Positions 8,584 to 62,337 are shown, counted from the first letter of the stretch. The stretch: 64,000 bases of DNA from an uncultured cyanobacterium (GCA_963718615.1 OY970368.1:4032001-4096000), one strand, 5' to 3'. The notes: a model not told the origin generated them from the sequence alone. Translations and numbers: made by a program.

Positions 8584-8610
8584 TGTAGGCGACTAAGCTA
8601 GAATAAGACC

Positions 8611-12342: not shown

Positions 12343-12783
12343 ATGATTCGTCGATTGACTATTCTGGAGGCTGTTGCCCATGAGCAACAGTGGATCACGG
12401 TATTATCTGGGTTTTTAGGGCTGATTCTTTTGGGTAGTTTGACCCATCTTCCCTTAGTGATCAAACTGTTTTTAGGATTTGTGCTGAGCTTGGCGCTCTA
12501 CGGTACAACTATTGTTTCTTTTCGACATATTCGTGTACTCATGTTAATTGGGCTGATTGGCCTAACCCTCTTCAGTATGATCGAGGTTGAAAACAGCCTA
12601 GTTTATGGGTTGTTTTTGAAGTCTACGGATTTTAATGGGATAGTCTTACCGGCTTTGAGAGCGTTGGGCGATCGCCTATTGATTCAGCCTGAAGTTTCTT
12701 TATTATGGACGGTCCCAATTTCATTCTCGGGCAATTTACCGAGTCTAAATTCAAGGCATTCAGCGCAACTACCGAGTTTTTAA
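12343..12783 (+). CDS. Hypothetical membrane protein
   Basis: AGGAGG RBS before the ATG and about three hydrophobic segments. No recognised family. Confidence 0.55.
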   Translation: MIRRLTILEAVAHEQQWITVLSGFLGLILLGSLTHLPLVIKLFLGFVLSLALYGTTIVSFRHIRVLMLIGLIGLTLFSMIEVENSLVYGLFLKSTDFNGIVLPALRALGDRLLIQPEVSLLWTVPISFSGNLPSLNSRHSAQLPSF

Positions 12784-12870
12784 ACTCAACAAATACATGA
12801 ATTGTACATAGAATTCTTCTGGGATTACGGCTCATAATAAAGGATGAGTTTCACTCCGCTCGTCTAGGTC

Positions 12871-15789
12871 ATGTTTGAACCCTTTGGCTATCTGGCTCAC
12901 CGCCAATTCCCTACCCCAGACCTACAGTGGCAAATGGAGCAGGACATCAACCATGGGGATATTTTGCTCAAACTGTCTGATTGGGCCACCCAGGCAGCAG
13001 AACAGTCTACAACGCATCCAGATGACATTAACCTAGCGACCATTCTACAAGCTGCCCAAGAAATCTCGGGGCTCCTCGAATGGAACGAGCTAGCTGAGCG
13101 GGTGAGTCAACAGATTCAGTTTCTGGCTCAAGCAGACCGCTTATTTCTGATCTTACCGAGTGAAATTCAAGCCGTTGCAGAGCAATCATCGCAAACTGAA
13201 TTAGACCTTCCCATCCATTGGATTGAGCAGGTCCAACGAACGAGACAAGCCGTTTACCTGTCTGGCTTTTCCGCAGAGGCTGCAAGTCTAGATCCAGATC
13301 ATTGGGCTACCCATTCTCCCCAATCATGCTTCTGTGTGCCCCTGCTCCATCAGGGGCAATGTTTTGGGAGTATTTACCTCGAATCTGATCATTCCCTAGG
13401 GTTGACGGAGGAGAGTCAGATCCTCATCCAATTTCTCTGTACTCAGGCGGCGATCGCCTTCAGTAATGCGCAGCAATACGAGCGAGTCAAAACTGAGACA
13501 GCAAGGCTAGAACATATCAACAGTTTGATTCGAGCCCAGCAAGATGCCGAGCTAGACGGTATTTTAGCCGTCGATGAAAACTATCGGTTTATTAGCTGCA
13601 ATCGCCGATTTCAGGAACTTTGGGGTATCCCAGAAGAGATTTTCCAATCTCAAGAGACCGATCGCATCAGACAATGGGTTTATGAGCAGGTCGAAGAACT
13701 GCCCAGCTTTGTTGCAAGAATTCAAGAACTTTACAGTAATCCAGGCTTTAAAGCACATGAGGAAGTTCGGCTCAAAGATGGTCGAGTATTTGAGCGATAT
13801 TCAAGCCCGATCCTATCTGAGAAAGGTGAGTTTTGGGGACAGATTTGGTGTTTTCGGGATGTCAGCGAGCATAAAGCCATAGAACAACAGCTTTACCAAT
13901 CTCAGCAACTGCTACAGCTTGTCCTGGATACGATTCCCCAGCAAGTTTGTTGGAAGGATAACAATTCTGTCTATCTCGGTTGCAATCAGGCTTTTGCCAC
14001 GATGGCAGGGCTAGAGTCTTCCAAACAGATTATGGGTAAGACGGATTACGATTTACCTTGGAAACCGCAGGAATCAGAGTTTTTCATAGACTGCGATTGT
14101 CGTGTGATGACCAGCGGCCAAGCTGAGCTCGGCATTATAGAACCACTCCTGACAGGAGAAGGCGAACAAATTTGGCTAGAAACTAATAAGTCTCCTCTTA
14201 GAGACCATTGCGGTGATGTAAAAGGGATTTTAGTCACCATTCAAGATATTACATCCCAGAAAAAAGCAGAGCAAACCCTGCAGCGAATCAATGAAGAATT
14301 AGAAGAACGAGTATCTCAGCGGACGGCTGCATTGGCCGCGATGAATCAGGCACTGGCAGAAGCAAAAATAGCGGCTGATAACGCAAGCCAAGCTAAGAGC
14401 GAATTTCTGGCTAATATGAGTCATGAACTGAGAACTCCTCTAAATGGCATTTTGGGTTATGCACAGATTTTATATCGATCTAGTGATGTTACAGCCAGAT
14501 CAAAAGAGGGCATTACTGTGATTCAGCGATGTGGCGAACATTTACTTCAGTTAATTAATGATATATTGGATCTATCTAAAATTGAGGCTCGTAAGCTTGA
14601 TTTAATCCTCGCTCCTACCCATTTTCCCTCATTTCTTCAGGAAATTGTTGAGATCTGTCGAGTCCGTGCCGATCAAAAGAATATTCAATTTTATTATCAG
14701 CCAGATCCGAGCCTTTCCCATGGACTGGAAATTGATGAAAAACGTCTACGGCAGGTTTTAATTAACATTATCGGAAATGCTATCAAATTTACCGATCATG
14801 GACGTGTTACCTTTGCAATCAAAAAACTTGAGTCCAATCTAGACCCCCATCAAGTCCGTTTAAGATTTAGTGTGTACGATACAGGCGTTGGCATCTCTAC
14901 TGAAAACTTAGGTCGTCTTTTCCATGCCTTTGAGCAGGTCAGTGAGGGCCGGCATCAGATTGAAGGGACAGGCCTAGGGCTTGCAATTAGTCAGAGACTT
15001 GTTACCCTCATGGGAGGTGTGATTCAAGTTGAAAGCCAACTCAATCAGGGCAGCCATTTCTTTTTCGAATTAGCGTTTTTTACTTCGGATGCGTGCTCAG
15101 TTGACAGCCAATCATCCAGTGAAAATATTTCAGGCTATCGGGGTCCGCGCCGCCATATTTTGGTGGTGGATGATCGTCGGGAAAATCGAGATGTGATCAA
15201 GCAGCTTCTGGGAAATATAGGCTTTACAGTGACTGAAGCGGAACAGGGCCAAGAGGCGCTCGAAAAAATGCAACATCATTTGCCGGATCTGGTAATTATG
15301 GATTTATGTATGCCTGTACTTGATGGCTATGCCTTTCTAAAAGTAGTACGCAATCACGAGAAGTTTTCTTCTATCCCCGTTATTATCTCTTCCGCTTCAG
15401 TTGGCGAAGCAAACCGGCAAAACAGTATACAAGCAGAGGACAATAATTTTCTAAGTAAACCGATTCGCTTAGACGAGTTGTTGATTGTGTTGCAAAGCCA
15501 TTTATCTCTGACCTGGCATTACAAAGATGATTGCAAAGATTCATCCCCCCCCTTGGCACCACCAACGAATCCTCAGCAACCCTCGGATCTTCCATCCCAA
15601 GATAATTTACAACTGTTGTTTGAGTTGATTAGCCGGGGAAGAATTAAAAAGTTTAATGAGTTTTTGGAGGAACTCCGTTCTCAAAATTTAGGCCATGCTG
15701 AATTTCTCGATCGCCTACGGTTTTTTAGTCGACGATTTGAACTAGAGAAAATTGAGAGTTTGCTGCAAGAATATCTAATAAAGTCCTAA
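12871..15789 (+). CDS. Hybrid sensor histidine kinase (GAF-PAS-PAS-HisKA-HATPase-REC)
   Basis: FLANMSHELRTPLN H-box, NAIKFT, DTGVG, GTGLGL, receiver ILVVDD...MDLCMP...KP. Confidence 0.95.
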   Translation: MFEPFGYLAHRQFPTPDLQWQMEQDINHGDILLKLSDWATQAAEQSTTHPDDINLATILQAAQEISGLLEWNELAERVSQQIQFLAQADRLFLILPSEIQAVAEQSSQTELDLPIHWIEQVQRTRQAVYLSGFSAEAASLDPDHWATHSPQSCFCVPLLHQGQCFGSIYLESDHSLGLTEESQILIQFLCTQAAIAFSNAQQYERVKTETARLEHINSLIRAQQDAELDGILAVDENYRFISCNRRFQELWGIPEEIFQSQETDRIRQWVYEQVEELPSFVARIQELYSNPGFKAHEEVRLKDGRVFERYSSPILSEKGEFWGQIWCFRDVSEHKAIEQQLYQSQQLLQLVLDTIPQQVCWKDNNSVYLGCNQAFATMAGLESSKQIMGKTDYDLPWKPQESEFFIDCDCRVMTSGQAELGIIEPLLTGEGEQIWLETNKSPLRDHCGDVKGILVTIQDITSQKKAEQTLQRINEELEERVSQRTAALAAMNQALAEAKIAADNASQAKSEFLANMSHELRTPLNGILGYAQILYRSSDVTARSKEGITVIQRCGEHLLQLINDILDLSKIEARKLDLILAPTHFPSFLQEIVEICRVRADQKNIQFYYQPDPSLSHGLEIDEKRLRQVLINIIGNAIKFTDHGRVTFAIKKLESNLDPHQVRLRFSVYDTGVGISTENLGRLFHAFEQVSEGRHQIEGTGLGLAISQRLVTLMGGVIQVESQLNQGSHFFFELAFFTSDACSVDSQSSSENISGYRGPRRHILVVDDRRENRDVIKQLLGNIGFTVTEAEQGQEALEKMQHHLPDLVIMDLCMPVLDGYAFLKVVRNHEKFSSIPVIISSASVGEANRQNSIQAEDNNFLSKPIRLDELLIVLQSHLSLTWHYKDDCKDSSPPLAPPTNPQQPSDLPSQDNLQLLFELISRGRIKKFNEFLEELRSQNLGHAEFLDRLRFFSRRFELEKIESLLQEYLIKS

Positions 15790-26896: not shown

Positions 26897-29424
26897 CGTC
26901 TTTCCCTCCTAGTAACGACTGGCCGATTCAACCCCAGTTTTCACTCCCCCCCTGGTTAACGGAGGTTGTACAACTATATACCCCAGATTCTGACGGACCC
27001 CCTAAAGGACCATCGGCAGGAAAATCAGCAGGAACATTTGCGGCTCAGCTGCTTTGGCAACGGGGATTGCGCGATCGCAAGACTGTTCTGGCCTTTTTAG
27101 ATTCTTCCCAATATTCACCCACCAGCGCTTTTGCACCGGGAACCGAGTTTGGCCAGGAGATGGCTTGGGCGGTTCGGCGGATAGACAGGGCAATCGCCCA
27201 ACGGGAAAAAATCGCTATCTGGGGAGACTTCGATGCGGACGGCATCACAGCCACAGCGGTTCTCTGGGAAGGTCTGAGCCATTGGGTCGAGCGCACCACC
27301 CATTTGCGATTTTATATTCCCAATCGCCTCACCGAATCCCACGGCTTGTCTGAGCCAGGATTGCAGCAGTTGGCAGCCTGGGGCGCAACGCTGCTGATCA
27401 CCTGCGACACAGGCAGTACCGAGACTGAGCGCCTTGCCTTGGCTCAGCAGCTTGGCCTGGATGTGATTGTCACCGATCATCACACCCTTGCGCCGGAACG
27501 CCCGCCGGTGGTGGCCCTAGTGAATCCGCGATCCCTCAGCGCCGACCATCCCTTGGCCGATCTCTCCGGCGTCGCTGTGGCTTACAAGCTGATCGAAGCG
27601 CTCCAGGAAACCCAGCCTCTGGCTCCGAATCCCTGCGACTCTCTTCTAGATCTGGTCGCCATTGGTCTGATTGCCGATCTGGTGGCCCTGAAAAACGACA
27701 GCCGCTATTTGGCCCAGGAAGGTTTGAAACGGTTGCAGAGATTGACGCGATCGCCCCAGGAGCGTCCCGGTGTGGCAGCGCTGCTCCAGCGCTGTCAGCG
27801 CAGTGGCGATCGCCCCACAGATATTTCCTTTGGCATCGGTCCCCGGATTAACGCTGTCAGCCGGATCCAGGGGGATGCGAGACTTTGCGTTGAACTGTTG
27901 ACCAGTCGGGATTCCGTTCGCTGCCAGGGGCTAGCCGATCAGGTGGAGTTGTTGAATAGTCGCCGAAAAGCTTTACAGCGCAGTTTGGAATTGGAGGTGC
28001 GATCGCGGCTCACCGGGTTAGATCTCTCGACCACCGCTGCTATCGTCCTCGCCGAAGTGGGCTGGCCCCTGGGGGTTTTAGGTCTCGTCGCCGGACAAAT
28101 TGCCCAGGAATTCGGCAAACCCACGGTGCTACTCAGCATTGATGAAACCCCAGATCCCTTGACGCGGGGCTCAGCTCGCTCAACCCAGCAAATCGATTTT
28201 TACCCCATTCTTCAGTCCCAGGAGGATTTACTCACAAGCTTCGGCGGTCATCCCTATGCCGCTGGCCTTAGCTTACCCGTTGAGAACCTGACGTTCTTTG
28301 CGGAGGGCTTGAATCAAGAGATGCGCCGACAACTTGCAACCATGCCTGCGATGTCAAAGCACCAAGCCGATCTGGTCCTGACCGTTGCCGACTTGGGCCA
28401 ACCGCTGTTCCGCGCCCTCAAGCTGTTAGAACCCTGTGGTATCGGCAATCCGGTCCCCAAATTACTGATCCGCAACTGTCGTTGTGAAAATGCCCGTCAT
28501 TTCAATATTAAAGACAGCAAAGGTGGAAAAGTTCGCTATATTAAAACCCAATTTCAACTCCGAGATCTTTCCACGACTCAACCCTTTCCGAGTCACTGGT
28601 GGGGTCACTATCGCGATGAACTACCGCTAGGCCTTTGCGATGTCTTGGGTGAATTGGATTACGACAGCTATGCCAAACAATACGAATTCCGCCTGATTGC
28701 CGTGCGATCGGTGGCCGAGCCATTCCATGAAGAATCGAGCAATGAAGAATCGATAGAAAATCAACCGCAGAGGCAGGCGCAAGGGCAGGCGCAAGGGCAG
28801 GATGAACGGCGGTTCGTCCCTACGGGGATGGCTGGAAAAATCCATGAGTTGCTTGACTGGCGCACTCACCCCCCGTCCTCTTCCCTCCAGCCTCCGTCCT
28901 CCGTCCTCCTGATGACCCAACCGCCCCAGTCCTGGTCCGACTTTCGCCCTTGGCTCAAGCAAGCGCAAGCGCAGCAGCGTCCCTTGGCGCTGGCCTATGG
29001 TCAAGCCTTGCCATTGCCTCCCCAGGAAACTTGGAAAATGCTGTTGGGACTCGTGAAATATTTGGTGCGGACCCAGGAGGCGATCGCCCTCAAACGACTG
29101 CAAAATCGTTTAAAGCTTGATGCGGCAACACTGGACTTGGCCTGGGGGGCGATCGCAGATTTAGGATTAGAAATCTATCATCCAGACTCCCAACATGTAC
29201 AAATCAAACCTGTACAAATCAAACCTGTACAAATCAAACCATTGGAAACAGTCGAATTTTTCATGGGTAATCGTCCTAAGATGCTGCTGAGTTCCTCTAA
29301 TGCGATGGATCGGTTTCTTACTGCGTTACAGGAATCCTATTTTCGTCAGCAATACTTTATTGAAGTTCCCCTAGAAACGATTCGACAGATGCTGTCTATG
29401 GATTCTGCCGATTTAGGATTCTAA
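26890..29424 (+). CDS. recJ: Single-stranded-DNA exonuclease RecJ (cyanobacterial long form)
   Basis: GDFDADG, TCDTG, TDHH, PRINA, GGHPYAAG. The exact start is uncertain. Confidence 0.93.
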   Translation: MSPSFPPSNDWPIQPQFSLPPWLTEVVQLYTPDSDGPPKGPSAGKSAGTFAAQLLWQRGLRDRKTVLAFLDSSQYSPTSAFAPGTEFGQEMAWAVRRIDRAIAQREKIAIWGDFDADGITATAVLWEGLSHWVERTTHLRFYIPNRLTESHGLSEPGLQQLAAWGATLLITCDTGSTETERLALAQQLGLDVIVTDHHTLAPERPPVVALVNPRSLSADHPLADLSGVAVAYKLIEALQETQPLAPNPCDSLLDLVAIGLIADLVALKNDSRYLAQEGLKRLQRLTRSPQERPGVAALLQRCQRSGDRPTDISFGIGPRINAVSRIQGDARLCVELLTSRDSVRCQGLADQVELLNSRRKALQRSLELEVRSRLTGLDLSTTAAIVLAEVGWPLGVLGLVAGQIAQEFGKPTVLLSIDETPDPLTRGSARSTQQIDFYPILQSQEDLLTSFGGHPYAAGLSLPVENLTFFAEGLNQEMRRQLATMPAMSKHQADLVLTVADLGQPLFRALKLLEPCGIGNPVPKLLIRNCRCENARHFNIKDSKGGKVRYIKTQFQLRDLSTTQPFPSHWWGHYRDELPLGLCDVLGELDYDSYAKQYEFRLIAVRSVAEPFHEESSNEESIENQPQRQAQGQAQGQDERRFVPTGMAGKIHELLDWRTHPPSSSLQPPSSVLLMTQPPQSWSDFRPWLKQAQAQQRPLALAYGQALPLPPQETWKMLLGLVKYLVRTQEAIALKRLQNRLKLDAATLDLAWGAIADLGLEIYHPDSQHVQIKPVQIKPVQIKPLETVEFFMGNRPKMLLSSSNAMDRFLTALQESYFRQQYFIEVPLETIRQMLSMDSADLGF

Positions 29425-31011
29425 TAGTTTAATCTTCAAAACCTGGCAGAGACGCTTACAATCCTGAGAACTAGGCATAAACCGACCTTTTTCTACATCT
29501 CGAATCCAGCTTTGGCTCTTATTAAGTTGTTCGGCTAGCGCGCGCTGGGAGAGAGATTGGCGTTGACGGGCTGCTTTGATTTCATGAGCCGAAAGCAGCG
29601 TTGAGAAAGAGGAGGCAGGGGTCGTACGGCGACGCTTGGGTGGACGACGAACCGCAGATTGCCAGTCATCACACAGATCAAAACCCTGTAAACGGGCATT
29701 GAGCAAACGTTGCCACTTGTTGCGCGGTGCATTTCCCGTCAGGCTTAGTAATTGATTGGCATCCTCTGTCCAAAAATCAAGGGCGGCCTCCGCATCCTCA
29801 GGGATATCTGCAACCCTTGCCCAAAGGGGCTGGATTTCAAGGGGATAGGTTTGCGGATCAAACAAAGGTTTAATGCCGTAATAATATAGCACTTCCAAAT
29901 CATTTTCAAAGGTCTTAAGGAGACGCTTACAAGAGCCTCGCACCGTTGTTGCTTCTTCCAGCTTGGCTTTGCCATAGGCAACAGATAACAGCGTCCGGAT
30001 CGTAACTCGTTGATCGCCGCCCAAACGCAGTTTAAACAAAAGCCACAGCAGCAGTCGAACCGAGCCTTCATGCTGTTGCCAATGACTAAAGATTTCCACC
30101 AGTAAAGATTGGGGAAGTGTGCTGTATTGATAAAAAGCATTTTGGTGATGGGCATCCTGCTGATTCAGAAACTTCTGCGCCCAGATCCCAGCCTGGATGA
30201 CAAAACTCAAACCAATCAAATGACGACAACCTTCAGCATCTTCCTCAAAGTAATACTGAGTATCGAATAGCTGCCAAATAGCATGTTCTGAGAAATGAAA
30301 GGGCTTCACTTTTCCTTGGCGTGGCCAGTCAACAGTCACTAAACAGCGACAGGTCTGATAAACCAAATCTTTAATTAAGGTTAGTTTATTCAATTTAGTT
30401 AAATCTTTGCGTTTATCCAGCCCTAAATATTGTTCGAAATGTTGGCTAGTTAACTGAAAAGGTTCTTCCCAGGGGCGATCGCGACCCACTGCATAGGCCG
30501 CAAAAATCAGATGTACACAGGCAGCACGCAATTCAAACTGGGCGATCGCGTCCCGTCCTGCCGCTGCCGTCATCGGCTCCGAGGTAAACGGATTCTCTGC
30601 TAAACGGAACTGCAATGACCCTCGCCCTCGATGGACTGAGCGATGGTAGCAAAAGCGCCCCTCAAGATCCGATTGCCAGGACAGCGTTTGGCGCTGTGCC
30701 AAAATATTACAGGTCTCCCAGATTACCAATGAAGAGGCAAAGGGGTTTGTTTTTCCATTTAGAAAGATATCGGGAATGGCAGCCGGAAGTAGGGTACTCT
30801 TACAGCGACCTTTTCTAGATGGCAGTGGAACCAGCTTCCCGACATCGCAAATAGTTGCACACAGAGGTTCTGTGAAGTCAGCACAATCATCACAGAGCGT
30901 TGGGTCAATCCAGTAACTTTTACCGTCATCGACTAGCTGAATTGCCTCCTTAGGACATGCCGGACGACAGCTATCACAAGCGATACAACCATCTTTAATC
31001 GTGAATGTCAT
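29413..31011 (-). CDS. cnfR: Nitrogen-fixation master activator CnfR (PatB)
   Basis: N-terminal 2[4Fe-4S] motifs (CIACDSCRPAC; CDDC...C) and a C-terminal XRE HTH (SQRALAEQLNKSQSWIRDVEKGR). Adjacent to the nif genes. Confidence 0.92.
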   Translation of the reverse strand: MTFTIKDGCIACDSCRPACPKEAIQLVDDGKSYWIDPTLCDDCADFTEPLCATICDVGKLVPLPSRKGRCKSTLLPAAIPDIFLNGKTNPFASSLVIWETCNILAQRQTLSWQSDLEGRFCYHRSVHRGRGSLQFRLAENPFTSEPMTAAAGRDAIAQFELRAACVHLIFAAYAVGRDRPWEEPFQLTSQHFEQYLGLDKRKDLTKLNKLTLIKDLVYQTCRCLVTVDWPRQGKVKPFHFSEHAIWQLFDTQYYFEEDAEGCRHLIGLSFVIQAGIWAQKFLNQQDAHHQNAFYQYSTLPQSLLVEIFSHWQQHEGSVRLLLWLLFKLRLGGDQRVTIRTLLSVAYGKAKLEEATTVRGSCKRLLKTFENDLEVLYYYGIKPLFDPQTYPLEIQPLWARVADIPEDAEAALDFWTEDANQLLSLTGNAPRNKWQRLLNARLQGFDLCDDWQSAVRRPPKRRRTTPASSFSTLLSAHEIKAARQRQSLSQRALAEQLNKSQSWIRDVEKGRFMPSSQDCKRLCQVLKIKLLES

Positions 31012-53291: not shown

Positions 53292-55160
53292 ATGTTAGAT
53301 CTTTCCCCCCTCTGGATTTCTCTAAAAATTGCGACGATCGCCACCGCATTTACTTTTTTTCTGGGTATTGCTGTGGCCCATAGCATGCATCATTATCGAG
53401 GACGCTGGCGATCGCTCCTAGAGGGATTTTTGCTAGCTCCCATGGTCTTACCGCCAACGGTTTTGGGCTTTTTATTGCTGTTACTCTTAGGGAAAAACGG
53501 ACCGATTGGAAAACTCTTAGAACCTTGGGGTTTGAATCTTATCTTTACCTGGTATGCGGCGGTCATTGCGGCAACGGTCGTTGCCTTTCCGTTAATGTAT
53601 AAGACGGTCTTGGGCGGTCTAGAGCAAATCGATCGTAATTTACAACAGGCGGCTAGGACGCTTGGGGCTTCTGAAGCACAGCTTTTTTGGCGAGTGACGC
53701 TGCCGCTCGCATTGCCAGGAATTATTGCAGGAACCACATTAGCTTTCGCGCGGGCACTGGGTGAATTTGGCGCGACGCTGATGCTGGCTGGCAATATTCC
53801 AGGACGAACCCAAACCCTGCCGATGGCGATTTATTTTTCCGTAGAAGCGGGAGATTTTGCGGCTGCAACTCTTTACTGTGGGATTGTCTTGGTTCTCTCT
53901 CTGGGTGGAATTGCACTGGTGAATGATTGGAATCGAGGTGATTCTTTTCGCAAAAATCGTCGTCATTCCCTTGATTTATCGGATGCTAGTTCTAGTGCGA
54001 TCGCCAAGATATCTTTACCACTGCTCTTCGGTGAAGCAGAGGCTGCTCAACGAACCACAACTCCCCTAGATCTACAAGTTCAACTGCGGAAACAACTGCC
54101 TGGTTTTGAGCTCAATGTGGTGTTTTCAACCACAGACAAGCATTTAGGCCTACTGGGTACATCGGGTGCGGGTAAGAGTTTAATTCTTCGCTGTATTGCA
54201 GGAATCGAAAATCCGGATTCTGGAAAAATTGTGCTTAATGGTAGGGTTCTGTTTGATTCGGAACGGGGCATTTGTGTGCCGAGTCGCGATCGCAAAGTCA
54301 GTCTATTATTCCAAAATTATGCGCTTTTTCCCCATTTAACTGTAGCCCAAAATGTTGCCTTTGGGTTAGAGCAGCAAGCGAAATGGTACCGAAAACAACG
54401 ACGGCAGTCGTCCCTTCAGGAAGTGGTTCGTTTGCAACTCGAAGCTTTTCAAATCGCTTCCCTGGCTCACCGCTATCCTCGCCAATTATCGGGGGGGCAA
54501 CAGCAGCGTGTTGCTTTAGCCCGTGCGCTAGTGAGTCAACCTGAGTTATTGCTTTTAGATGAGCCTTTTTCAGCTTTAGATACGCATTTGCGCAGCCGCA
54601 TGGAACAGCAAATGGGGTTAAGTTTACAGGCTTATCCGGGCCTTTCACTCTTGGTGACCCATAATCTGGAAGAGGCCTATCGGCTTTGTTCTCAGTTGAT
54701 TGTGATTGAGTCGGGCCAGGTGGCGGCTCAGGCCAGTAAGTATGAAATTTTTGAGCATCCTCGGACGGCGAGTGTGGCTCAACTTACGGGATGCAAGAAT
54801 TTATCGCGGGCGATCGCCCAAGGCCCCCATCAACTGCGAGCGTTAGATTGGGATTGTATTTTAACGACTTTAGAACCGATTCCGTCAAATCTGGCTCAAG
54901 TGGGTATGCGGGCGCATCAAGTTCGGTTTTTGTCGGATTTTTCCCAGGAACCGAATTGTTTTCCCTGTTGGCTGAGCAATGTGAGTGAAACACCCCATCG
55001 GGTGACGCTATATTTAAAGCTGAATCGACCGGCGCGATCGCCTCAGGATTATGATTTACAGGCGGAAGTGTTTAAGGAAAAGTGGGCGATGTTAAAGGAT
55101 CAAGCGATGCCTTGGCCTGTCCAGCTCGATCCTCTGAAGCTGTTATTGTTAGATGCGTAG
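53292..55160 (+). CDS. modBC: Fused molybdate ABC permease/ATPase ModBC
   Basis: LPPTVLG and FARALGEFGAT permease motifs, then GTSGAGKS, LSGGQQQR, LLLDEPF. Confidence 0.95.
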   Translation: MLDLSPLWISLKIATIATAFTFFLGIAVAHSMHHYRGRWRSLLEGFLLAPMVLPPTVLGFLLLLLLGKNGPIGKLLEPWGLNLIFTWYAAVIAATVVAFPLMYKTVLGGLEQIDRNLQQAARTLGASEAQLFWRVTLPLALPGIIAGTTLAFARALGEFGATLMLAGNIPGRTQTLPMAIYFSVEAGDFAAATLYCGIVLVLSLGGIALVNDWNRGDSFRKNRRHSLDLSDASSSAIAKISLPLLFGEAEAAQRTTTPLDLQVQLRKQLPGFELNVVFSTTDKHLGLLGTSGAGKSLILRCIAGIENPDSGKIVLNGRVLFDSERGICVPSRDRKVSLLFQNYALFPHLTVAQNVAFGLEQQAKWYRKQRRQSSLQEVVRLQLEAFQIASLAHRYPRQLSGGQQQRVALARALVSQPELLLLDEPFSALDTHLRSRMEQQMGLSLQAYPGLSLLVTHNLEEAYRLCSQLIVIESGQVAAQASKYEIFEHPRTASVAQLTGCKNLSRAIAQGPHQLRALDWDCILTTLEPIPSNLAQVGMRAHQVRFLSDFSQEPNCFPCWLSNVSETPHRVTLYLKLNRPARSPQDYDLQAEVFKEKWAMLKDQAMPWPVQLDPLKLLLLDA

Positions 55161-55327
55161 GTTGGGTTGAGGCACGAAACCCAACATGCACAAGTCAACC
55201 TGCACAAGCTCTGTTGGGTTTCGCTAGGGCTCAAGTCAACCTGCACAAGCTCTGTTGGGTTTCGCTAGGGCTCAAGTCAACCTGCACAAGCTCTGTTGGG
55301 TTTCGCTAGGGCTCAACCCAACCTACG
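55156..55327. repeat. REP-like palindromic element with internal 3x41-bp tandem amplification
   Basis: 16-bp terminal inverted repeats CGTAGGTTGGGTTGAG/CTCAACCCAACCTACG. Identical 41-mers at 55191, 55232 and 55273, with no spacers. Confidence 0.9.
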
Positions 55328-57334
55328 AATTTGCTGGGCTTCGATTTGACTCGCGAATAAGCTTTGCAAACGCATCAGTTGCCCCCCGCCTAGATAGAGT
55401 AAATCACCTTTACCCAAGAGCTGTGCTGCGGCTTCTTCTTTACCCCCTAGGATGATCGAAGAGTCGGCGGAGCTAGCGGTTCGCAGGGCTACACGTCCGG
55501 GCAGGTTGGAACGAATCAGGGGGGTGACGACTTTGGCTTCGGGGCGTTGGGTGGCGATGATCAGGTGAATGCCTGCGGCGCGGGCCATGGCTCCAAGTCG
55601 TTTGATGCTTTGTTCTAGGGCTGTTGCAACGGATTTCTCAGCCATGAAGTCTGCGTATTCGTCAAAAATGCAGACAATTCTTGGGAGCGGTTCCGCTTTG
55701 GCATTGTAACCTTTAAGGTCTGAGCATTGGGCTTGTTCAAAGCGACGATAGCGACGTTCCATTTCATCGACCAGGCTTTCCATTAGCTCGATCGCGGCTT
55801 CGGAATCTTTGACGATGGGTTGATAGAGCCAGGGAATGGTTTCAAATTCTGGGAAGGTGACGCGCTTGGGATCGACGAGGACAATTTTGAGGTGATTGGG
55901 ACTGTGGCGGGTGAGGAGGCTGAGGAGGAGCGATCGCAAAAACTCGCTTTTACCGCTTCCAGTTGTACCTCCGACTAAAAAGTGACAGGTGTTGGGATCG
56001 GATAGGTCGGCTTCAACAAGATGGCCATCCAGGTTAACACCGATCGCAATCTTAACCGGCTCGGTGGGCGGGGTGTTTTGGCGCTGAATGTAGTCTTGAA
56101 AATGGGCGGTTTGGCGATCGGGTCGGGGCAAGTCTACGCTAAGATAACCGGCTTGAGGGGCAATCATCGGCGCGTTGTGAAGTCCCATCTGAACCCGTAA
56201 ATCGTCAGAAAGTTTGAGGATCGAGGCGATTTTAATGCCGGGATGAGGTTTAAGTTTGACTCGAATAAACGCAGGGCCGATGGCAGAGCCCGCGTAGTCT
56301 ACGCCGATGTTGAAGGCGCTGAGGACTTGGATCAGTTGGTTAGCGGTTTCATCAGCAACATTGTTGTTGGGGGGCGGTGGGATGGTGGGGTGATGGGGTA
56401 GTGGGGTGATGGGGTGGTGGGGTGAATTGGTGGGTTGGGGAATTGGGTCTGGAGCGAGGTCGGCGGCGGTGGCTCCGAACATTTCTCGGCATTTACTGCG
56501 TTTGGGACAGATGCCGCAGAGGGAGGGTTGGGCGGTGGCTGGGACGGGGTTGGGCTGGCCGGGTTGCCATTGCAGCCAGGTTTGCATTTGCTGGAGCCGT
56601 TGGGGGATGAGCTGATGAACGGTGGATTCTAGTTGATCCCATTGGAAACTTTGTTCTTTCCAGTCGGGCAGAACGCTGTAAACGGCGGAGTTGATCGGGA
56701 CGCCGACTTTTTGCCGCAGCATGTAGCCATATAGGGCAACTTGGGCGAGGGTGGCGGAGGCGTCTTGGGTTTGGTAGGTTTTGTAGTCGGCGACGCAGAG
56801 GCGTTGTTGGGAGAAGTCGTAAATCAGGCTATCAAACTTGCCTTGGACGAGCTGTTGTGTGCCGTTGGGCAGGGTGAAGGTATGGGCGAGTTTGAGTTCT
56901 TTGGCGAGGAAGGTGCGGGAGGCAACGTCGGTGGCGTTGCAAAATTGGCGGTTGCTGGCGAGGAGTTTACCCCAATGCTGAATCAGTCCGGTGAGCCCTT
57001 GCCAAAGTTTTTGATAAGCCGCAACTTTCTTGGGGTCTGACTGCGCAACTTGCAAGAGTTCTGGGTAGAAGGCATGTTTATACAGCAGTTTCTCTAGTTC
57101 TTGGGCGGTGGTCTGAGCGTCAAGGTTTGGGGGGTTGAATAGTGCCTGAAATTCAGGGTTTTTGAGGATTAGTTCGACGGATGTTTCACAGAGCTTGTGG
57201 AAGGCTTGGCCAATGCCTGTGACTGTGTCTTTGGGTTGAAACATCGTGGGGCCAGGAAATTTCTCTCCGAGGTAGAAGAGGCGGGGGCACTCGAAGGCGA
57301 CGCGGATTTTGGTGACGCTGAGGGAGGAAGTCAT
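55313..57334 (-). CDS. PD-(D/E)XK (Cas4/AddB-like, Fe-S) nuclease fused to a soluble FtsK/SpoIIIE ATPase
   Basis: N-terminal CPRLFY, KFD...DYKT...QVALY and CGICPKRSKC. C-terminal GGTTGSGKS, VDPK, IFDEYAD, HLIIATQRP, LLGKGD. No TM segments and no gamma domain. Confidence 0.85.
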   Translation of the reverse strand: MTSSLSVTKIRVAFECPRLFYLGEKFPGPTMFQPKDTVTGIGQAFHKLCETSVELILKNPEFQALFNPPNLDAQTTAQELEKLLYKHAFYPELLQVAQSDPKKVAAYQKLWQGLTGLIQHWGKLLASNRQFCNATDVASRTFLAKELKLAHTFTLPNGTQQLVQGKFDSLIYDFSQQRLCVADYKTYQTQDASATLAQVALYGYMLRQKVGVPINSAVYSVLPDWKEQSFQWDQLESTVHQLIPQRLQQMQTWLQWQPGQPNPVPATAQPSLCGICPKRSKCREMFGATAADLAPDPIPQPTNSPHHPITPLPHHPTIPPPPNNNVADETANQLIQVLSAFNIGVDYAGSAIGPAFIRVKLKPHPGIKIASILKLSDDLRVQMGLHNAPMIAPQAGYLSVDLPRPDRQTAHFQDYIQRQNTPPTEPVKIAIGVNLDGHLVEADLSDPNTCHFLVGGTTGSGKSEFLRSLLLSLLTRHSPNHLKIVLVDPKRVTFPEFETIPWLYQPIVKDSEAAIELMESLVDEMERRYRRFEQAQCSDLKGYNAKAEPLPRIVCIFDEYADFMAEKSVATALEQSIKRLGAMARAAGIHLIIATQRPEAKVVTPLIRSNLPGRVALRTASSADSSIILGGKEEAAAQLLGKGDLLYLGGGQLMRLQSLFASQIEAQQIRRLG
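56376..56423 (-). repeat. Six octamer repeats (48 bp) in the nuclease-FtsK linker
   Basis: On the + strand: GGTGGGAT GGTGGGGT GATGGGGT AGTGGGGT GATGGGGT GGTGGGGT, encoding PHHPITPLPHHPTIP. Confidence 0.8.
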
Positions 57335-59337
57335 GAGGGGACGAGGCAGATGACCTGCTGTTCTGGTTTTACGCTGGGATCTACGATCCGTATCCTACCT
57401 GTCTGACACATCTTTACAAGAATTGATTCAAGATCTGAGTCACTTACATGACTAAATTGGTCCTTTGCATTTTTCAGAAAGACTGTACGACCTAAAATAT
57501 GCTGAGTTTCGATCAGGCTATACAAATAGCCTTCGACCTTTTTTAGACCTGGACCTGGAACTGGAACTGGACCTGGACCTATACCTCTCACAGCTTCAAA
57601 TAATTCTTTCAAGATTGGACAATCATCAAGTACTTTAGTTTCTCTAACAAGAGCACGTAACTCTTTGAGACTGATCTCTTTTTGACCGACTACTAATTCT
57701 CGGCTACCAGAATCATTGACGAGCTTCTGATAGGTTTCAAGAAAGTAGAGAGAATCGAGATTAGGTTTAAGATGAGTATTTTTATCGAATAGTTGTTGAT
57801 AGAGCTGATGTCCTCGATTTCTCGCGCCCCCTGTACTCTCTGACCGTACTAAAATAAGCTTATCAAAAGCACCTCGGTTGTTCACACTTCTACAAGCATT
57901 CATCACGTGAAAGAACGTTTGCATATTTCTTTCTTCACTCCATACAACACCAATACTTTTATCGGAGTCCTTGAAACTTAATGAATTAGCCGAGTATCTA
58001 GAGTTTCCTAGAATCGAGGTTTTAATCTGGTCTGTTGAAAGTGCTTCTAGGGCTTCGCGCAGTCTCTGAATGAGTTCAGGTGAAGAAAACTGCTGTATGC
58101 GCGAGACTCGTTGCCTGGAGGCTTTGAATTCTTTTTGCCAAACCAGTATGAACTGGGTAGATAATAAGGGTGTTGGTCCTGTTTCTGTTTCTGTTCCTGG
58201 TACTACAGGTGGTAATTTTCCGTGACGCTTGAAGTGATTAACTAGCGTTTCGCCAATCATCAGTGCAATGCGCGGTAAGGTTTTACCACCCGGAACTTTT
58301 GCATCTAGCCACTCTCGTTTTAGGGGATCGATCGGGCTTTTCGGGCGTGGATTGGCCAAGCGATGTAGTGGGTAGAGATTTGCAGCCCAAATTTCCTCGG
58401 CTTGATCTGTTGAAATTTTTCTAAGTTCTAGTGTCTGACCAATACTCGCCAAATCAGACGTTTGGATTTTCTCTTTGGCGACACGCCAAGCATCAGTAAT
58501 TACACTAATAATTATTAGAAAGTTCTTTACTCTTGAATTATGAAAAGTCGAATTAATATCGAGTACAGCTTGATAGTTACCTTTGGTGGTATCGATCTGA
58601 TCAAAGCAAATTACGATAGGCTGTGTTTCTCTTGCAATTAGACCGATATTGTTTAGAATTTTTTGCGCCGCATCCTCCGAGTCAATAGATCCTCTTATTT
58701 TAAGCTTTTTCAGATCATCTTCATCTAAATCGTCACCCCGTAACCAGTCACAAGCGACGTCAAATGTTTCAGATTGTGTCAAGGCGTAGAGCGCTCGAAA
58801 GAAATCCTTGGCGCGATAGAGGCCAACAGGGTAGGCAGCTTTCATGATGTTAACAAATTTGTCACATCCTTCTTGTAGCCAATTCGATTTCTTTTGATTT
58901 TGCAGTTTGAGAAGACTGCGAAGCCAAAGCGAGATCTGTGATTCACTCTCTCCTTCTGGAACTTGCATCAGGCTATCAACTGTATTTCGGAGAGTGTGCC
59001 TCCAGATGTAACTTTGTGGCTCAGGACAAGGACCAACATATACGAAGAAAGCCCGATCGTTGAGTTCTCGCTTAATTCGGCCTAATAGATAGCTTTTGCC
59101 AGATCCACTTTCGCCTTGTATTAGGATGGTTCGGGTGACATGATCATGCGCCATCTGAGCGACAGCGGATTCTACCCTTTCAATCACATCTTGATGAATT
59201 GACTTGACTTCTAATGCGTCTTGATAATCATCTTGCCAGAAGTTTCCAGCCTTAATACTTGGATTAAAGGGATTTACACTAAGTTGAACGATCTTCTCAA
59301 TGGGTTGTTTGGAGGTAGATTCTTTTGATGGAGCCAT
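57331..59337 (-). CDS. P-loop ATPase (RcaG-like / AAA-type) with probable C-terminal winged helix
   Basis: Walker A GESGSGKS and Walker B ICFDQID. Its stop overlaps the start of the nuclease-FtsK gene (ATGA). Confidence 0.8.
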   Translation of the reverse strand: MAPSKESTSKQPIEKIVQLSVNPFNPSIKAGNFWQDDYQDALEVKSIHQDVIERVESAVAQMAHDHVTRTILIQGESGSGKSYLLGRIKRELNDRAFFVYVGPCPEPQSYIWRHTLRNTVDSLMQVPEGESESQISLWLRSLLKLQNQKKSNWLQEGCDKFVNIMKAAYPVGLYRAKDFFRALYALTQSETFDVACDWLRGDDLDEDDLKKLKIRGSIDSEDAAQKILNNIGLIARETQPIVICFDQIDTTKGNYQAVLDINSTFHNSRVKNFLIIISVITDAWRVAKEKIQTSDLASIGQTLELRKISTDQAEEIWAANLYPLHRLANPRPKSPIDPLKREWLDAKVPGGKTLPRIALMIGETLVNHFKRHGKLPPVVPGTETETGPTPLLSTQFILVWQKEFKASRQRVSRIQQFSSPELIQRLREALEALSTDQIKTSILGNSRYSANSLSFKDSDKSIGVVWSEERNMQTFFHVMNACRSVNNRGAFDKLILVRSESTGGARNRGHQLYQQLFDKNTHLKPNLDSLYFLETYQKLVNDSGSRELVVGQKEISLKELRALVRETKVLDDCPILKELFEAVRGIGPGPVPVPGPGLKKVEGYLYSLIETQHILGRTVFLKNAKDQFSHVSDSDLESILVKMCQTGRIRIVDPSVKPEQQVICLVPS

Positions 59338-59412
59338 GGTGATGCCAGAATCGATAACAAATGAGTTCAAGACCTGAACGGTAGCGAGTTTAAAATTGAT
59401 TTTGAGGAAACA

Positions 59413-60240
59413 TTAAGGATTTAGGCGAATGAAAAACAGAGGGCCGCCAATATCCTGAGGAATACCTGCTCTAATTTGAGCTTCACTATAACGACTGATC
59501 TCATGAAGAGCCGTTAGCTCGATTTTGTCGTCTCTTTGAAGTTGATAGAGAATGCGATCTAACTCGTCACGATCAAGAGCGACTTGATCACGAAGATAGA
59601 AAAGGGGCAAGTAATTATCCGTGTTGTACTGACGATCGAGCTTTGCAATTAGCTCCAATACTTCTGACGCATTAGACACCTGAATCTTCTTGAACTCAAA
59701 ATTTTCAGGTTCTACCTCATCGCTATCCGCAGCCTGCCGCAGAAAGTTGACGTAGCTCCCCATGAGGTTCAGGCTAACAGTCGCTCCCCCAGACGGCTTA
59801 AACTCATGCCGCAAAAACTGCTCACCTTGGGGCGTCAGCCAAACCTCTGCGATCTTGATATCCCGATCGCTCACCTTCAAAAAGCCCCGCTCCTCCAACG
59901 AGCGAATCAGCGCTTGGCGGCGATCGCTAGCAACCTTCTTAACCATCCCCGTCGTGACTCGCTGCCCACCCTTAGCCGCCTCCAGCACACTCAACTCATC
60001 AGCGCTGATCGGTAGATTGGCGACATCTAATTTCAGGAGATTTTGGCCTGTTGGGGCGATCGCAAATCCCCTAATCTCTGTACGATAGGCGACAATTCCT
60101 TTGTTGACCAACTCCCTACAAGCCTTATCCCGATCTGCTGCGCTCTTTCCAGGGCTTAGCTTGTCATTCATCGGACCCCGATACCCCGGCAATCCCAGCA
60201 GCTTCAGCAAAAACTTTAGTTCAAGCGTACTTATATCCAT
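59413..60240 (-). CDS. RcaD-like multi-winged-helix DNA-binding protein
   Basis: ATG at 60240 with GAGGGG RBS. ELKFLLKLLG N-terminus and NYLPLFYLR...LYQLQRDDKIEL resemble proteins annotated RcaD (recall). Three wHTH-like segments. Confidence 0.65.
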   Translation of the reverse strand: MDISTLELKFLLKLLGLPGYRGPMNDKLSPGKSAADRDKACRELVNKGIVAYRTEIRGFAIAPTGQNLLKLDVANLPISADELSVLEAAKGGQRVTTGMVKKVASDRRQALIRSLEERGFLKVSDRDIKIAEVWLTPQGEQFLRHEFKPSGGATVSLNLMGSYVNFLRQAADSDEVEPENFEFKKIQVSNASEVLELIAKLDRQYNTDNYLPLFYLRDQVALDRDELDRILYQLQRDDKIELTALHEISRYSEAQIRAGIPQDIGGPLFFIRLNP

Positions 60241-60465
60241 CTGCTCAATCCCCTCACTCATATGCTCAGTCATCGTTAGAGCCCGCATCACATTGGACCC
60301 AACTTCTCTATTCTGGCAAAATTTACAGAGATCGGGATTGAAAAATCAAAAATTTTGATCAATCACTGTGTTTTTTGCTGCCAAGCCCCCTTCGGAATTT
60401 CCGTAACCGGAATGACTTCAAGCAGCAGCGATTCCCAGCTTTCCGGAAAAGGAAAGGAGCTTTCC

Positions 60466-60500
60466 CAGATCTGACCAGATCTGAACAGATCTGAACAGAA
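60466..60500. repeat. Three 10-bp direct repeats CAGATCTGA(C/A) upstream of the RcaD-like operon
   Basis: CAGATCTGAC CAGATCTGAA CAGATCTGAA CAGAA. Each unit contains the palindrome CAGATCTG. Confidence 0.7.
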
Positions 60501-60558
60501 CGCGATCGCACGAGTAGCCAACCTCTCCCAATCGCTCTCATAGAAGCTCATTCCCAAG

Positions 60559-61059
60559 TCAATAGGAGATCGTTACCGTATTCGGCGCAAAAAGAAGCGG
60601 TAATGCGCCTCCCTCTTCTCCAAGCACAACACCTTCAATCAAATCCTCCTGAGTTAAGCCTGCTTCGCGAGAGCAACTTGGACAAGCAATCACTCTTCCC
60701 CCATCCTCAATAAACGCTTGCAGTTTTTGATGAATATTCAAATGGCTGTTACCTTCTGTCGCAGGAAGTCGCTCCTGATCCGCAAGATACACCCCACGAA
60801 CATTTAGAAAGACAGTGACGGGCTGGTGTCCGCGTCGCAAGGCATTGTGGGCCAGAGAGAGGGCCATACTTGCAGTCCATGTCTCATCAGTCGTCAGATT
60901 AACGAACAGCCCTCTTGGTTCAGCAACATTTTCTGTAGTTTGAGCGAATACAGTTTCCGAGTAAGCTGGTGTCGCTGTAATAATATTGCAACTCAATAAA
61001 CCACCCAAGAATGAAGCAGCAAACACACAAGGCAAGTTAGATTTGAATTGGCGTTTCAT
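60559..61059 (-). CDS. Exported DsrE-family protein
   Basis: Signal peptide, LFVNLT, VTVFLNVRGV, VIACPSC. Confidence 0.8.
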   Translation of the reverse strand: MKRQFKSNLPCVFAASFLGGLLSCNIITATPAYSETVFAQTTENVAEPRGLFVNLTTDETWTASMALSLAHNALRRGHQPVTVFLNVRGVYLADQERLPATEGNSHLNIHQKLQAFIEDGGRVIACPSCSREAGLTQEDLIEGVVLGEEGGALPLLFAPNTVTISY

Positions 61060-61606: not shown

Positions 61607-61627
61607 CTCTCAAAATGAGAGTATAAT
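61607..61627 (+). promoter_or_regulatory. higBA promoter/operator
   Basis: Inverted repeat CTCTCA-AAA-TGAGAG immediately followed by a perfect TATAAT, 28 bp before the higB ATG. Confidence 0.7.
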
Positions 61628-61655
61628 GAGGGATAGACTCCAGCAGGCATCGTTG

Positions 61656-61955
61656 ATGCACCTCATATCAATCCGTAAGCTCCGTAGTGATGCAGCCCAT
61701 TACCCTGATCTAGGCCAAGTCATTAACGCTTGGTACGCAGTCGTAAAGAAAGCAAACTGGAAGAATCTAGAGGACGTGAGAATAATTTATCGAGATGCTG
61801 AAACCGTCGGAAACTTCACTGTCTTTAATCTAAAGGGAAATCAGTATCGATTAATCGTTGGTATTGATTACCCTAGCCAAACGGTCTACTACAAATATCT
61901 TCTAACTCACGCTGATTACGATAAAAATAGGTGGAAAAATGACCCTTACTTTTAA
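61656..61955 (+). CDS. higB: Type II toxin HigB (RelE-like mRNA interferase)
   Basis: MHLIS, VFNLKGNQYRLI, LTHADYDK. Confidence 0.92.
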   Translation: MHLISIRKLRSDAAHYPDLGQVINAWYAVVKKANWKNLEDVRIIYRDAETVGNFTVFNLKGNQYRLIVGIDYPSQTVYYKYLLTHADYDKNRWKNDPYF

Positions 61956-62337
61956 TCTGACTGCTTATAGCGATCTTCTACGGGAAATCACACCCAAAAT
62001 CATCGAGACAGAGATGGAGTATGAAAAAACCTTAGCAATCGTCGAGCAACTGACCTTTAAGCGCGATCGCACCCCCGAAGAAACCGCACTGCATAGGCTA
62101 CTGGTCATACTCATAGAAACCTACGAAGCCGAGCAATACCCCATCCCAGAATCCTCCCCCGACGAAATCCTGCGCCACATCATGGAAGCCAGCGGTACTC
62201 GCCAGATTGACCTAGTGGGAATAATCGGCTCTAGCGGCGTCGTCTCAGAAATCGTCAACGGAAAACGAACCATCAGCAAAGCCCAAGCCAAAATCCTCGC
62301 GGATCGGTTCAAAGTTTCATCCAGCTTGTTCATTTAA
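61939..62337 (+). CDS. higA: Antitoxin HigA (HTH)
   Basis: LIETYEAEQYP, GVVSEIVNGKRTIS. Overlaps the higB end. Confidence 0.92.
   Translation: MTLTFNLTAYSDLLREITPKIIETEMEYEKTLAIVEQLTFKRDRTPEETALHRLLVILIETYEAEQYPIPESSPDEILRHIMEASGTRQIDLVGIIGSSGVVSEIVNGKRTISKAQAKILADRFKVSSSLFI

Follow-up and report, generated by a model that had tools for sequence, protein, structure and literature searches.

In a stretch of 64,000 nucleotides from an uncultured cyanobacterium (GCA_963718615.1, OY970368.1:4032001-4096000), called the window in the following, three long, co-oriented open reading frames (ORFs) on the minus strand at 55313-60291 encode a homolog of RcaD, a homolog of RcaG, and a fusion of an iron-sulfur (Fe-S) nuclease with an FtsK-type motor. 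We favour the view that the three genes form one functional unit, which would be a targeted, ATP-driven DNA-degrading machine that RcaD and RcaG target or license and that is probably directed against unwanted DNA; this is a tentative reading, for which belief and doubt are nearly balanced with a slight lean towards doubt. That the genes belong together is assumed because they are conserved together, decay together, and because genes 2 and 3 are coupled by an ATGA overlap. RcaD and RcaG have been known for about twenty years as transcription factors of chromatic acclimation, and a role of both proteins in DNA transactions is the most economical reading of the data presented here. The three-gene unit was found in cyanobacteria only. 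If our reading is true, a named cyanobacterial “transcription factor” pair would be reassigned to a DNA-processing machine, and the reassignment would also account for the resemblance of RcaG to ATPases of the ORC/TnsC type.

Organization of the operon

All features of the three genes lie on the minus strand. The longest ORF of gene 1, the RcaD homolog (59413-60291), has 292 amino acids and starts with GTG at 60291. Alternative starts are the ATG at 60288, which leads to the recorded product of 291 amino acids, and the ATG at 60240, which is favoured by the alignment of the homologs, most of which begin at the equivalent position. Gene 2, the RcaG homolog (57331-59370), is an ORF of 679 amino acids from a TTG, with ATG 59337 as the likely start, and the resulting product of 668 amino acids is the sequence on record. 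Gene 3 (55313-57334) encodes a protein of 673 amino acids, in which a PD-(D/E)XK Fe-S nuclease is fused to the alpha and beta domains of an FtsK motor. The stop codon of gene 2 and the start codon of gene 3 overlap in an ATGA (57331-57334), whereby the two genes are translationally coupled, and overlaps of 4-22 nucleotides or short gaps recur at this junction in other loci. An earlier reading of the window made from the DNA alone (below, the sequence-only reading) had described three co-oriented genes, the last two coupled by an ATGA overlap, and had set the end of the operon at 60240. The ORFs agree with this in all points, as 60240 is the ATG of gene 1 preferred by the homolog alignment. Scans of the region 54900-60700 gave eight promoter-like sites (5.2 +/- 2.2 in shuffled sequences) and seven terminator-like sites (6.4 +/- 2.5 in shuffled sequences), hence no signal in either case.

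The nuclease-FtsK fusion

Gene 3 is predicted to encode a soluble, FtsK-type pump of double-stranded DNA with an N-terminal nuclease of the Cas4/AddB type. The nuclease domain comprises residues 1-283 (56486-57334), of which residues 4-283 match the Pfam family PDDEXK_1 with 54.4 bits (cut-off 22). Sequence and alignment reveal the catalytic motif D168 ... D183-Y-K185 (56780-56833), and the domain also carries the motif Q198xxxY202. Furthermore, three cysteines near its end, C273-x2-C276-x5-C282 (56489-56518), and a fourth one near its beginning, C16 in C16-P-R (57287-57289), are presumed to be the ligands of a 4Fe-4S cluster. Both the nuclease motifs and this one-plus-three arrangement of cysteines had been noticed in the sequence-only reading. 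The conservation of the motifs was counted in 20 sequences, i.e., the window and 19 orthologs. The four cysteines are invariant in all 20 and also in 34/34 sequences of a larger alignment, and the other nuclease residues are kept in nearly all sequences (D168 in 18/20, D/E183 in 19/20, K185 in 18/20, Q198 in 19/20, and Y202 in 18/20), so that the complete D...(D/E)xK...QxxxY motif is intact in 18 of the 20. In the two orthologs with a degenerate motif (L030 and L033), each locus has an extra stand-alone nuclease paralog, an indication that the system requires nuclease activity.

The nuclease is followed by a proline-rich linker to the motor (residues 287-323, 56366-56476), which is unconserved in the alignment; 13 prolines are found within residues 284-335. 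The FtsK alpha domain covers residues 324-403 (56126-56365; PF17854, 41.8 bits) and the RecA-like beta domain residues 424-666 (55337-56065), with residues 424-598 matching FtsK_SpoIIIE (PF01580) at an E-value of 1.6e-42. The Walker A motif of the motor lies within the beta domain at 55946-55969, and Walker A (GSGKS), Walker B (FDEYAD) and the TQRP motif are invariant in 20/20 sequences. No membrane segment is predicted in gene 3, where the highest Kyte-Doolittle mean over 19 residues is 1.24, no match to Ftsk_gamma was found in Pfam at E <= 0.1, and the FtsK equivalog NF007615 scores 181 bits, far below its cut-off of 1566. Therefore, the gene 3 product is, as judged from these features, not the divisome FtsK, as the sequence-only reading had already proposed from the missing membrane anchor and gamma domain. 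The nuclease region of gene 3 recovers 468 protein clusters, nearly all of which are labelled FtsK or cell division protein. If our reading is true, a widespread annotation would be corrected, since hundreds of “cell division protein FtsK” genes would be mis-annotated.

Several more specific families match gene 3 below their cut-offs, namely the Cas4 equivalog TIGR00372 (18.2 bits, cut-off 65), the HerA-type DUF87 (22.7 bits, cut-off 23.2) and the antiphage HerA family NF042943 (14.1 bits, cut-off 800), and none of the operon proteins matches NurA. Among the PADLOC models, those for SspH are closest to the motor and match it in their C-terminal FtsK part alone (E 6e-70 and 3.7e-52), the better match covering residues 327-666 of gene 3 and positions 1406-1758 of the 1766 model positions. 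Further PADLOC matches are likewise on the level of domains (mad8 and, weakly, HerA, Cas4, and DruK).

The RcaD and RcaG homologs

Searches of Pfam, NCBIfam, and PADLOC gave no match for gene 1. At E <= 0.001, 163 relatives were found, and every named one is cyanobacterial. Relatives with 40-46% identity are labelled “transcription factor RcaD” in NCBI and UniRef, so the RcaD similarity stated in the sequence-only reading holds. The AlphaFold model of gene 1 (predicted local distance difference test, pLDDT, 89.6) contains three winged-helix-like modules, in line with the former label of a protein with multiple winged helices, and RcaD is accordingly modelled as a three-winged-helix, predicted DNA binder. 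In the model, residues 13-170 are MarR-like (Z about 7), and residues 204-291 form a winged helix that superposes on 1w1w_E (Z 8.4, root-mean-square deviation (rmsd) 2.2, 66 aligned residues). This C-terminal module aligns with the winged helices of kleisins, ORC, and MarR at Z 7-8.4. A profile of gene 1 against the PDB retrieved SlyA (E 1.6e-4); a Foldseek search of the PDB with the model retrieved nothing at E <= 0.001, only weak hits to proteins with several winged helices. As the Z scores of the winged helices are in the commonly seen range, they are evidence of the fold and not of the function. No match of RcaD was found in phage records at E <= 1e-3.

Gene 2 matches the Pfam families AAA_16 (39.5 bits, cut-off 32.6) and NACHT (30.1 bits, cut-off 26.7), both above cut-off, which bears out its earlier description as a P-loop ATPase. 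In the structural model (pLDDT 84.1), residues 26-397 superpose on Cdc6 (7jgr_G; Z 14.1, rmsd 3.4, 252 aligned residues) and also resemble TnsC (Z 12.2), BrxC (Z 11.9), and MuB (Z 11.4). The top Foldseek match is 1fnn (E 7.7e-6), and residues 600-678 are modelled as a winged helix (Z 10.7). The Walker A motif GESGSGKS (59092-59115) corresponds to residues 86-93 of the ORF of 679 amino acids, and G86, G91, and K92 are invariant in an alignment of 20 sequences. In the same alignment the Walker B residue D257 is invariant and the next residue is Q or N, never E, which would fit a slow switch ATPase. According to the model, RcaG is an AAA+ switch ATPase similar to ORC, Cdc6, TnsC, and BrxC, with a C-terminal winged helix.

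Co-conservation and decay

Of 41 related genomes, five have the full fusion, and strong matches of RcaG and of RcaD were found in nine each. RcaD and RcaG are encoded directly upstream of the fusion in 17 of the 19 loci retrieved. In the genomes of the other two loci and in one more of the same genus (G104, G190, G394), fusion and RcaG are unlinked, and RcaG lies at another place in the genome. Two pattern scans of 185,579 species genomes extended these counts. With an RcaG profile, 460 relatives were found, of which the best 80 were analysed. All 80 are cyanobacterial, RcaD lies upstream of RcaG in 78 of them, and the third gene is of the nuclease type in 49. With a Nostocales fusion as the query, 335 relatives were found, and the best 80 of these, all from Nostocales, have RcaD and RcaG upstream of the fusion in 75 cases. 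Four of the other five loci are cut by contig ends, and one fusion locus (L139) has no detectable RcaD. Tolypothrix tenuis PCC 7101 contains all three genes in a row, encoding RcaD (284 amino acids), an RcaG-type ATPase (693 amino acids), and an exonuclease-nuclease-FtsK protein (846 amino acids), which are annotated as “Transcription factor RcaD”, “Orc1-like AAA ATPase domain-containing protein”, and “cell division FtsK/SpoIIIE”, respectively.

In a sample of 401 cyanobacterial genomes the distribution is patchy, with the full fusion in 37 and RcaG in 49. All 37 are among the 49, and no RcaG-negative genome of the sample has a full-length fusion. Since all fusion genomes have RcaG and not vice versa, it can be assumed that the fusion depends on RcaG. 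The sampled genomes are related and hence not independent, so the co-occurrence counts carry no statistic. The co-conservation that the sequence-only reading wanted checked is thus found on the level of genomes (37/37) as well as in the gene order of Nostocales.

Six of the 37 fusion matches have one in-frame stop codon. Moreover, motor fragments without RcaG are present in three genomes of one genus (G070, G079, G092), and in another genome (G338:C2:2310780-2314308) a broken RcaG gene with stop codons lies beside motor fragments. The motor fragments of the four genomes are 66-76% identical to the motor of the window and are, together with the broken RcaG gene, apparent remnants of a decayed system.

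Architectural variants and descent of the fusion

The common form of gene 3 (about 850-930 amino acids) has a 3'-5' exonuclease domain of the DEDDy type (DNA_pol_A_exo1) ahead of the nuclease, and in G033 and Coleofasciculus this domain is located between nuclease and motor. The gene 3 of the window has no exonuclease domain, and no close copy of it was found elsewhere in the genome, the best match being 34% identical. A tree of the fusion was built from 50 rows, comprising the window, the 38 loci with uncut ORFs among the best 80 RcaG relatives, ten Nostocales loci picked for taxonomic spread from the best 80 of 335, and a plasmid copy. The exonuclease-less state takes two changes on this tree, and the window falls into an exonuclease-less clade of 17 rows (support 98) together with Nodosilinea and Phormidesmis. 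In terms of the tree, the clade of the window has lost the exonuclease domain, and its gene 3 would be a reduced form.

Other loci have additional domains. The third gene of L030 (10508-13873) encodes 1121 amino acids with an inserted Ser/Thr kinase domain. L033 (816-7043) contains YbjN domains, a separate exonuclease-YbjN gene, a kinase-trypsin gene and the extra nuclease gene. In L101 (5788-10650) the third gene encodes 1620 amino acids, with about 800 amino acids of tetratricopeptide (TPR) repeats before the exonuclease-nuclease-FtsK part, and in L036 and L118 it encodes the nuclease alone. This shuffling of domains, with the exonuclease N-terminal, internal, or absent and with kinase, YbjN, or TPR parts added, is typical of conflict systems.

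RcaD and RcaG also occur in further combinations. RcaD with two full-length RcaG paralogs and no nuclease is found in L044, L066, L075, and L099, and such an RcaD-RcaG-RcaG module immediately precedes a complete RcaD-RcaG-exonuclease-nuclease-FtsK module in L061, L062, L073, L077, and L082, in the last of which the tandem modules are located at 3817-8034 and 8405-13883. In one genome that has no fusion (G013, L016:8499-10608), the genes downstream of RcaD and RcaG encode an AAA_21 ATPase and an RloB-like protein, a pair of a type known from abortive-infection and OLD-like systems. Finally, ORFs of about 1,800 amino acids in G009 (C280), G043 (C13), G224 (C19), and G226 (C1) have a C-terminal FtsK domain that is 34-37% identical to that of the window and are probably SspH-like proteins.

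Relation to known systems

No catalogued system in PADLOC-DB 2.0.0 (2023) was matched by all components of the operon, which indicates that the catalogued defence systems do not include the unit. This is the outcome of the PADLOC comparison proposed in the sequence-only reading, which gave matches on the level of domains and none to a system. The unit would be a translocase-coupled nuclease with an ATPase partner, which is a known general kind and not categorically new.

In HerA-NurA, which serves end resection in archaea, and in HerA-based defence pairs, a ring translocase of the FtsK-HerA superfamily works with a nuclease, to which it feeds the DNA. The window unit likewise pairs a predicted ring translocase of this superfamily with a nuclease. 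However, its motor is of the FtsK type and its nuclease is a PD-(D/E)XK enzyme with a presumed Fe-S cluster and not NurA, motor and nuclease are joined in one polypeptide, and the unit further includes an ORC-like ATPase and a winged-helix protein. With Cas4 and AddB, gene 3 shares the D...(D/E)xK and QxxxY motifs, the one-plus-three cysteines, and the PDDEXK_1 match above cut-off. It differs from Cas4 in that TIGR00372 remains under its cut-off and no CRISPR-cas genes were found among the window ORFs scanned, and from AddB in that the unit has no helicase partner of the AddA type. The divisome FtsK and SpoIIIE have in common with gene 3 the alpha and beta motor domains with intact Walker A, Walker B, and TQRP motifs, whereas gene 3 has neither a membrane domain nor the gamma domain, which reads the FtsK-orienting polar sequences (KOPS), and carries an N-terminal nuclease instead. 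ORC/Cdc6, TnsC, MuB, and BrxC are ATP-dependent, DNA-associated switch or loader proteins. The model of RcaG superposes on them over residues 26-397 (Z 11.4-14.1), but the sequence similarity of RcaG is limited to the P-loop region. Unlike ORC-type proteins, RcaG has a middle domain of its own of about 200 residues (about 400-600) and a Walker B aspartate that is followed by Q or N.

The unit also resembles SspFGH and DndFGH, the three-gene restriction modules of phosphorothioate defence systems, in combining a Walker-A ATPase with a protein whose C-terminus is an FtsK/SpoIIIE-like motor. According to passages of PMC8092258, DNA is damaged by SspFGH with its Walker-A ATPase and FtsK-like protein, and SspH is not reported there to have a Cas4-like nuclease. 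In contrast to this likeness, only about 350 of the 1766 SspH model positions are matched by gene 3, RcaD and RcaG match neither SspF nor SspG, and no sspBCD or other modification genes were seen among the neighbours in the window. Closest with respect to genes 1 and 2 is the RcaD/RcaG pair of Calothrix (Tolypothrix, Fremyella) PCC 7601, which shows the same RcaD homology and the same order of RcaD followed by RcaG. The pair of the window is tied to it via named homologs and synteny. In passages of PMC2799420, the pair of PCC 7601 is described only as a two-gene regulatory pair, and no mention of the third gene or of a DNA-degrading role was found, whereas the unit of the window adds a third gene. 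A link of RcaD/RcaG to an FtsK-nuclease or to defence was not found in the literature searched, with supplements and the FtsK-HerA survey of 2004 lying outside the search; this survey or the supplementary tables on conflict systems may list the fusion architecture. In passages of two papers from the Aravind laboratory, FtsK ATPase domains appear only as rare effectors of other ternary systems.

Proposed mechanism and alternative explanations

The alpha and beta domains of FtsK form a ring on duplex DNA. The FtsK part of gene 3 would correspondingly encircle duplex DNA and feed it to the PD-(D/E)XK nuclease to which it is tethered, as well as to the DEDDy exonuclease that most species have, and both strands would be degraded during translocation in a processive shredding analogous to HerA-NurA or RecBCD. 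RcaD as the DNA binder and RcaG as the switch similar to ORC, TnsC, MuB, and BrxC would pick the DNA via a feature, with DNA ends or DNA without some host feature as candidates, and would recruit, load, or license the motor-nuclease in an ATP-dependent manner. The likeliest role would be the removal of unwanted DNA, with foreign DNA (phage, plasmid) first, by a cyanobacterial defence-type system that is not yet catalogued. Such a defence-type role is ranked first because of the patchy presence of the fusion, its repeated decay, the domain shuffling, the plasmid copy, and the precedent of SspFGH. A more specific version is possible, with doubt clearly prevailing. In this version, an immune system specific to cyanobacteria would have RcaD and RcaG as its module for DNA recognition and ATP switching, and foreign DNA would be driven by the soluble FtsK ring into the Fe-S nuclease of the same protein and, in the usual form, into a 3'-5' exonuclease as well. 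If the unit removes unwanted DNA, the published action of RcaD at promoters of phycobiliprotein genes would be a by-product of its binding to DNA in general, or else a separate function. The sequence-only reading had seen a sensor, an ATPase, and a translocating nuclease acting in defence or DNA transactions. Its unit, its motifs, and the DNA transactions are retained here, and its island edge is not taken as that of a defence island.

If true, the operon would represent a compact, translocation-coupled DNA degradation in a single polypeptide with a dedicated loader-like module, a design of “ORC-like loader plus DNA shredder” that is absent from current defence catalogues, and this in a phylum in which little is understood of either defence or the processing of double-strand breaks. 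The hypothesis is directly testable in Fremyella/Tolypothrix, for which the literature reports rcaD mutants.

Several observations speak against a DNA-degrading defence unit. What the fusion does is read from sequences and models, and its contact with RcaD and RcaG is presumed. In PADLOC, RcaG has matches on the P-loop level only, and RcaD has none. The operon contains no modification gene or other evident device for the distinction of self and non-self. In 16 of the 80 RcaG loci a second full-length RcaG paralog is found in place of the nuclease gene, and 12 have nothing downstream, in seven cases despite a flank of 3 kb or more, the other five being cut (three further loci have other arrangements); RcaD-RcaG can therefore act without the nuclease-FtsK effector. 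Similarly, the full fusion is missing in 12 of the 49 RcaG-positive genomes of the 401-genome sample. The fusion tree follows taxonomy with 13 label changes (mean of shuffled labels 22.6; 13 reached in 0/200 shuffles), and Nostocales form one clade. Together with the single plasmid record among 72,556 that carries RcaG or the full fusion, this points to a mostly vertical descent of the fusion accompanied by many losses, an unusual pattern for a defence system. At 14 loci of other orders the 84 flanking ORFs are mostly housekeeping genes. Nine of the 84 are defence- or mobile-like (two PIN, two Uma2, one AAA_15/21, two DNA methylases, one Eco57I-type, and one NYN), a raw count without background control, by which the earlier expectation of a defence island is weakened.

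Since the gene tree follows taxonomy, genome maintenance is a strong rival, even if it appears rather unlikely to us. The operon would then encode an end-processing or DNA-clearing enzyme of polyploid cyanobacteria similar to RecBCD/AddAB or HerA-NurA, in which the fusion resects double-strand breaks or degrades broken chromosome copies, with RcaD and RcaG as a DNA-binding loader. The chromosomal context in Nostocales is stable: of the 61 loci with full flanks, 48 have a co-oriented ParA-like gene downstream, 24 have a gene for isoleucyl-tRNA synthetase (IleRS), and two glycosyltransferase genes recur in 25 and 23. Genes of replication and repair (RecR, RecG, DnaN with DnaA, ParA, DnaB) are neighbours across several loci. 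The genome of the window has no match to RecC (PF04257) and one other PDDEXK_1 protein, an ORF of 272 amino acids, and no enzyme of the size of AddB was found in it; an Fe-S nuclease of the Cas4/AddB type together with a 3'-5' exonuclease would suit the processing of both strands. However, a maintenance enzyme that is present in just 37 of 401 genomes and has repeatedly been lost or become a pseudogene is not what would be expected, the domain shuffling exceeds what is usual for core repair enzymes, and one copy is plasmid-borne.

The remaining explanations give the fusion another or no part in the function of the pair. RcaD was isolated as a protein binding the cpc2 promoter and affects red-light operons, RcaG was proposed as an aid to its binding, and an RcaD homolog of Lyngbya bound a jamaicamide promoter region (all in passages of PMC2799420). 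These findings run counter to the DNA-degrading unit that we prefer and, together with the RcaG-positive genomes without fusion, favour the idea that RcaD acts as transcription factor of the phycobiliprotein operons, helped by RcaG as an ATPase, with the nuclease-FtsK gene as a co-transcribed neighbour of unrelated function. This is improbable, as in the 37 sampled genomes that have it the fusion never occurs without RcaG, and as it follows RcaD-RcaG in nearly all Nostocales loci, including that of PCC 7101, genes 2 and 3 are translationally coupled, RcaG and fusion decay together, and an ORC/TnsC-like ATPase is an unusual partner for a transcription factor. Still less probable is a function of a mobile element in DNA transfer, partition, or plasmid maintenance, like that of the TraB-type FtsK proteins of conjugative elements. 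One operon copy is located on a conjugative megaplasmid of Pseudanabaena PCC 7367 beside an IS21 element, the NCBIfam family of plasmid TraB weakly matches the motor (51.6 bits, cut-off 800), and FtsK-only paralogs are present on many Nostocales plasmids. However, this megaplasmid is the single one of the plasmid records with full fusion or RcaG, no integrase, relaxase, or transfer genes were found in the flanks scanned, and the intact nuclease domains argue for degradation and not for transfer. The least probable explanation, and a highly improbable one, is the FtsK of cell division or chromosome segregation that the public annotations “cell division protein FtsK” and “DNA translocase FtsK” imply. 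It has in its favour the good match to the FtsK/SpoIIIE motor, the ParA-like gene adjacent in Nostocales, and the fact that gene 3 as a query finds just one other, weak FtsK-like match in the genome of the window (L002, G000:C1:2889624-2890256; E 6.5e-9, 28% identity, in a frame of 1021 amino acids). Apart from the missing membrane segment and gamma domain and the low NF007615 score, the fusion of the motor to nucleases and the fact that no full-length form was found in 364 of the 401 sampled genomes contradict it. RcaG was also considered as an alternative replication initiator, against which its patchy distribution argues.

Genomic context

The operon lies between a nif cluster and a higBA pair, which is followed by a gene of the aconitase family. 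The window from about 30 to 55 kb is the nif cluster, with a guanine-cytosine (GC) content of 0.43-0.50 compared with 0.55-0.58 in the flanks. The “island edge” next to which the sequence-only reading had placed the operon, understood as that of a defence island, is instead the edge of this low-GC nif/mod cluster and is metabolic. The adjacency of higBA, on the other hand, is real. A HigB-like toxin gene is found at 61626-61955 (PF09907, E 4.7e-29), and an ORF that overlaps it (61939-62337) and has a weak HTH_3 match is likely HigA; the pair (61626-62337) is directly upstream of the operon region.

The nif cluster (32326-55160) looks complete and contains genes for a NifV-like homocitrate synthase, a NifB-like protein, NifS, NifU, NifH, NifD, NifK, a fused NifEN, and NifX, as well as ferredoxins, FeoA, a ModA-like protein, and a fused ModBC-like transporter. 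The source organism is a Leptolyngbya-type diazotroph. Where the low-GC region begins, an ORF of 532 amino acids (29413-31011) has a C-terminal HTH_3 domain as its sole Pfam match. An IS605 OrfB/TnpB-like gene (OrfB_IS605, HTH_OrfB_IS605, Cas12f1-like TNB) is located at 8611-9798.

The ParA-like gene was considered as a fourth member of the operon and rejected, as its ortholog in the genome of the window (62% identity) is 1.7 Mb away. A ParA/MinD-like ATPase (AAA_31) follows the fusion at L119:8944-9828, and two are found in the Coleofasciculus locus L079:10826-13015. On the Pseudanabaena plasmid (L199, NC_019690.1 182650-200695), the operon is flanked by genes for a DEAD/DEAH-box helicase with a SWIM zinc-finger protein, an IS21 helper, and a phycobiliprotein lyase.

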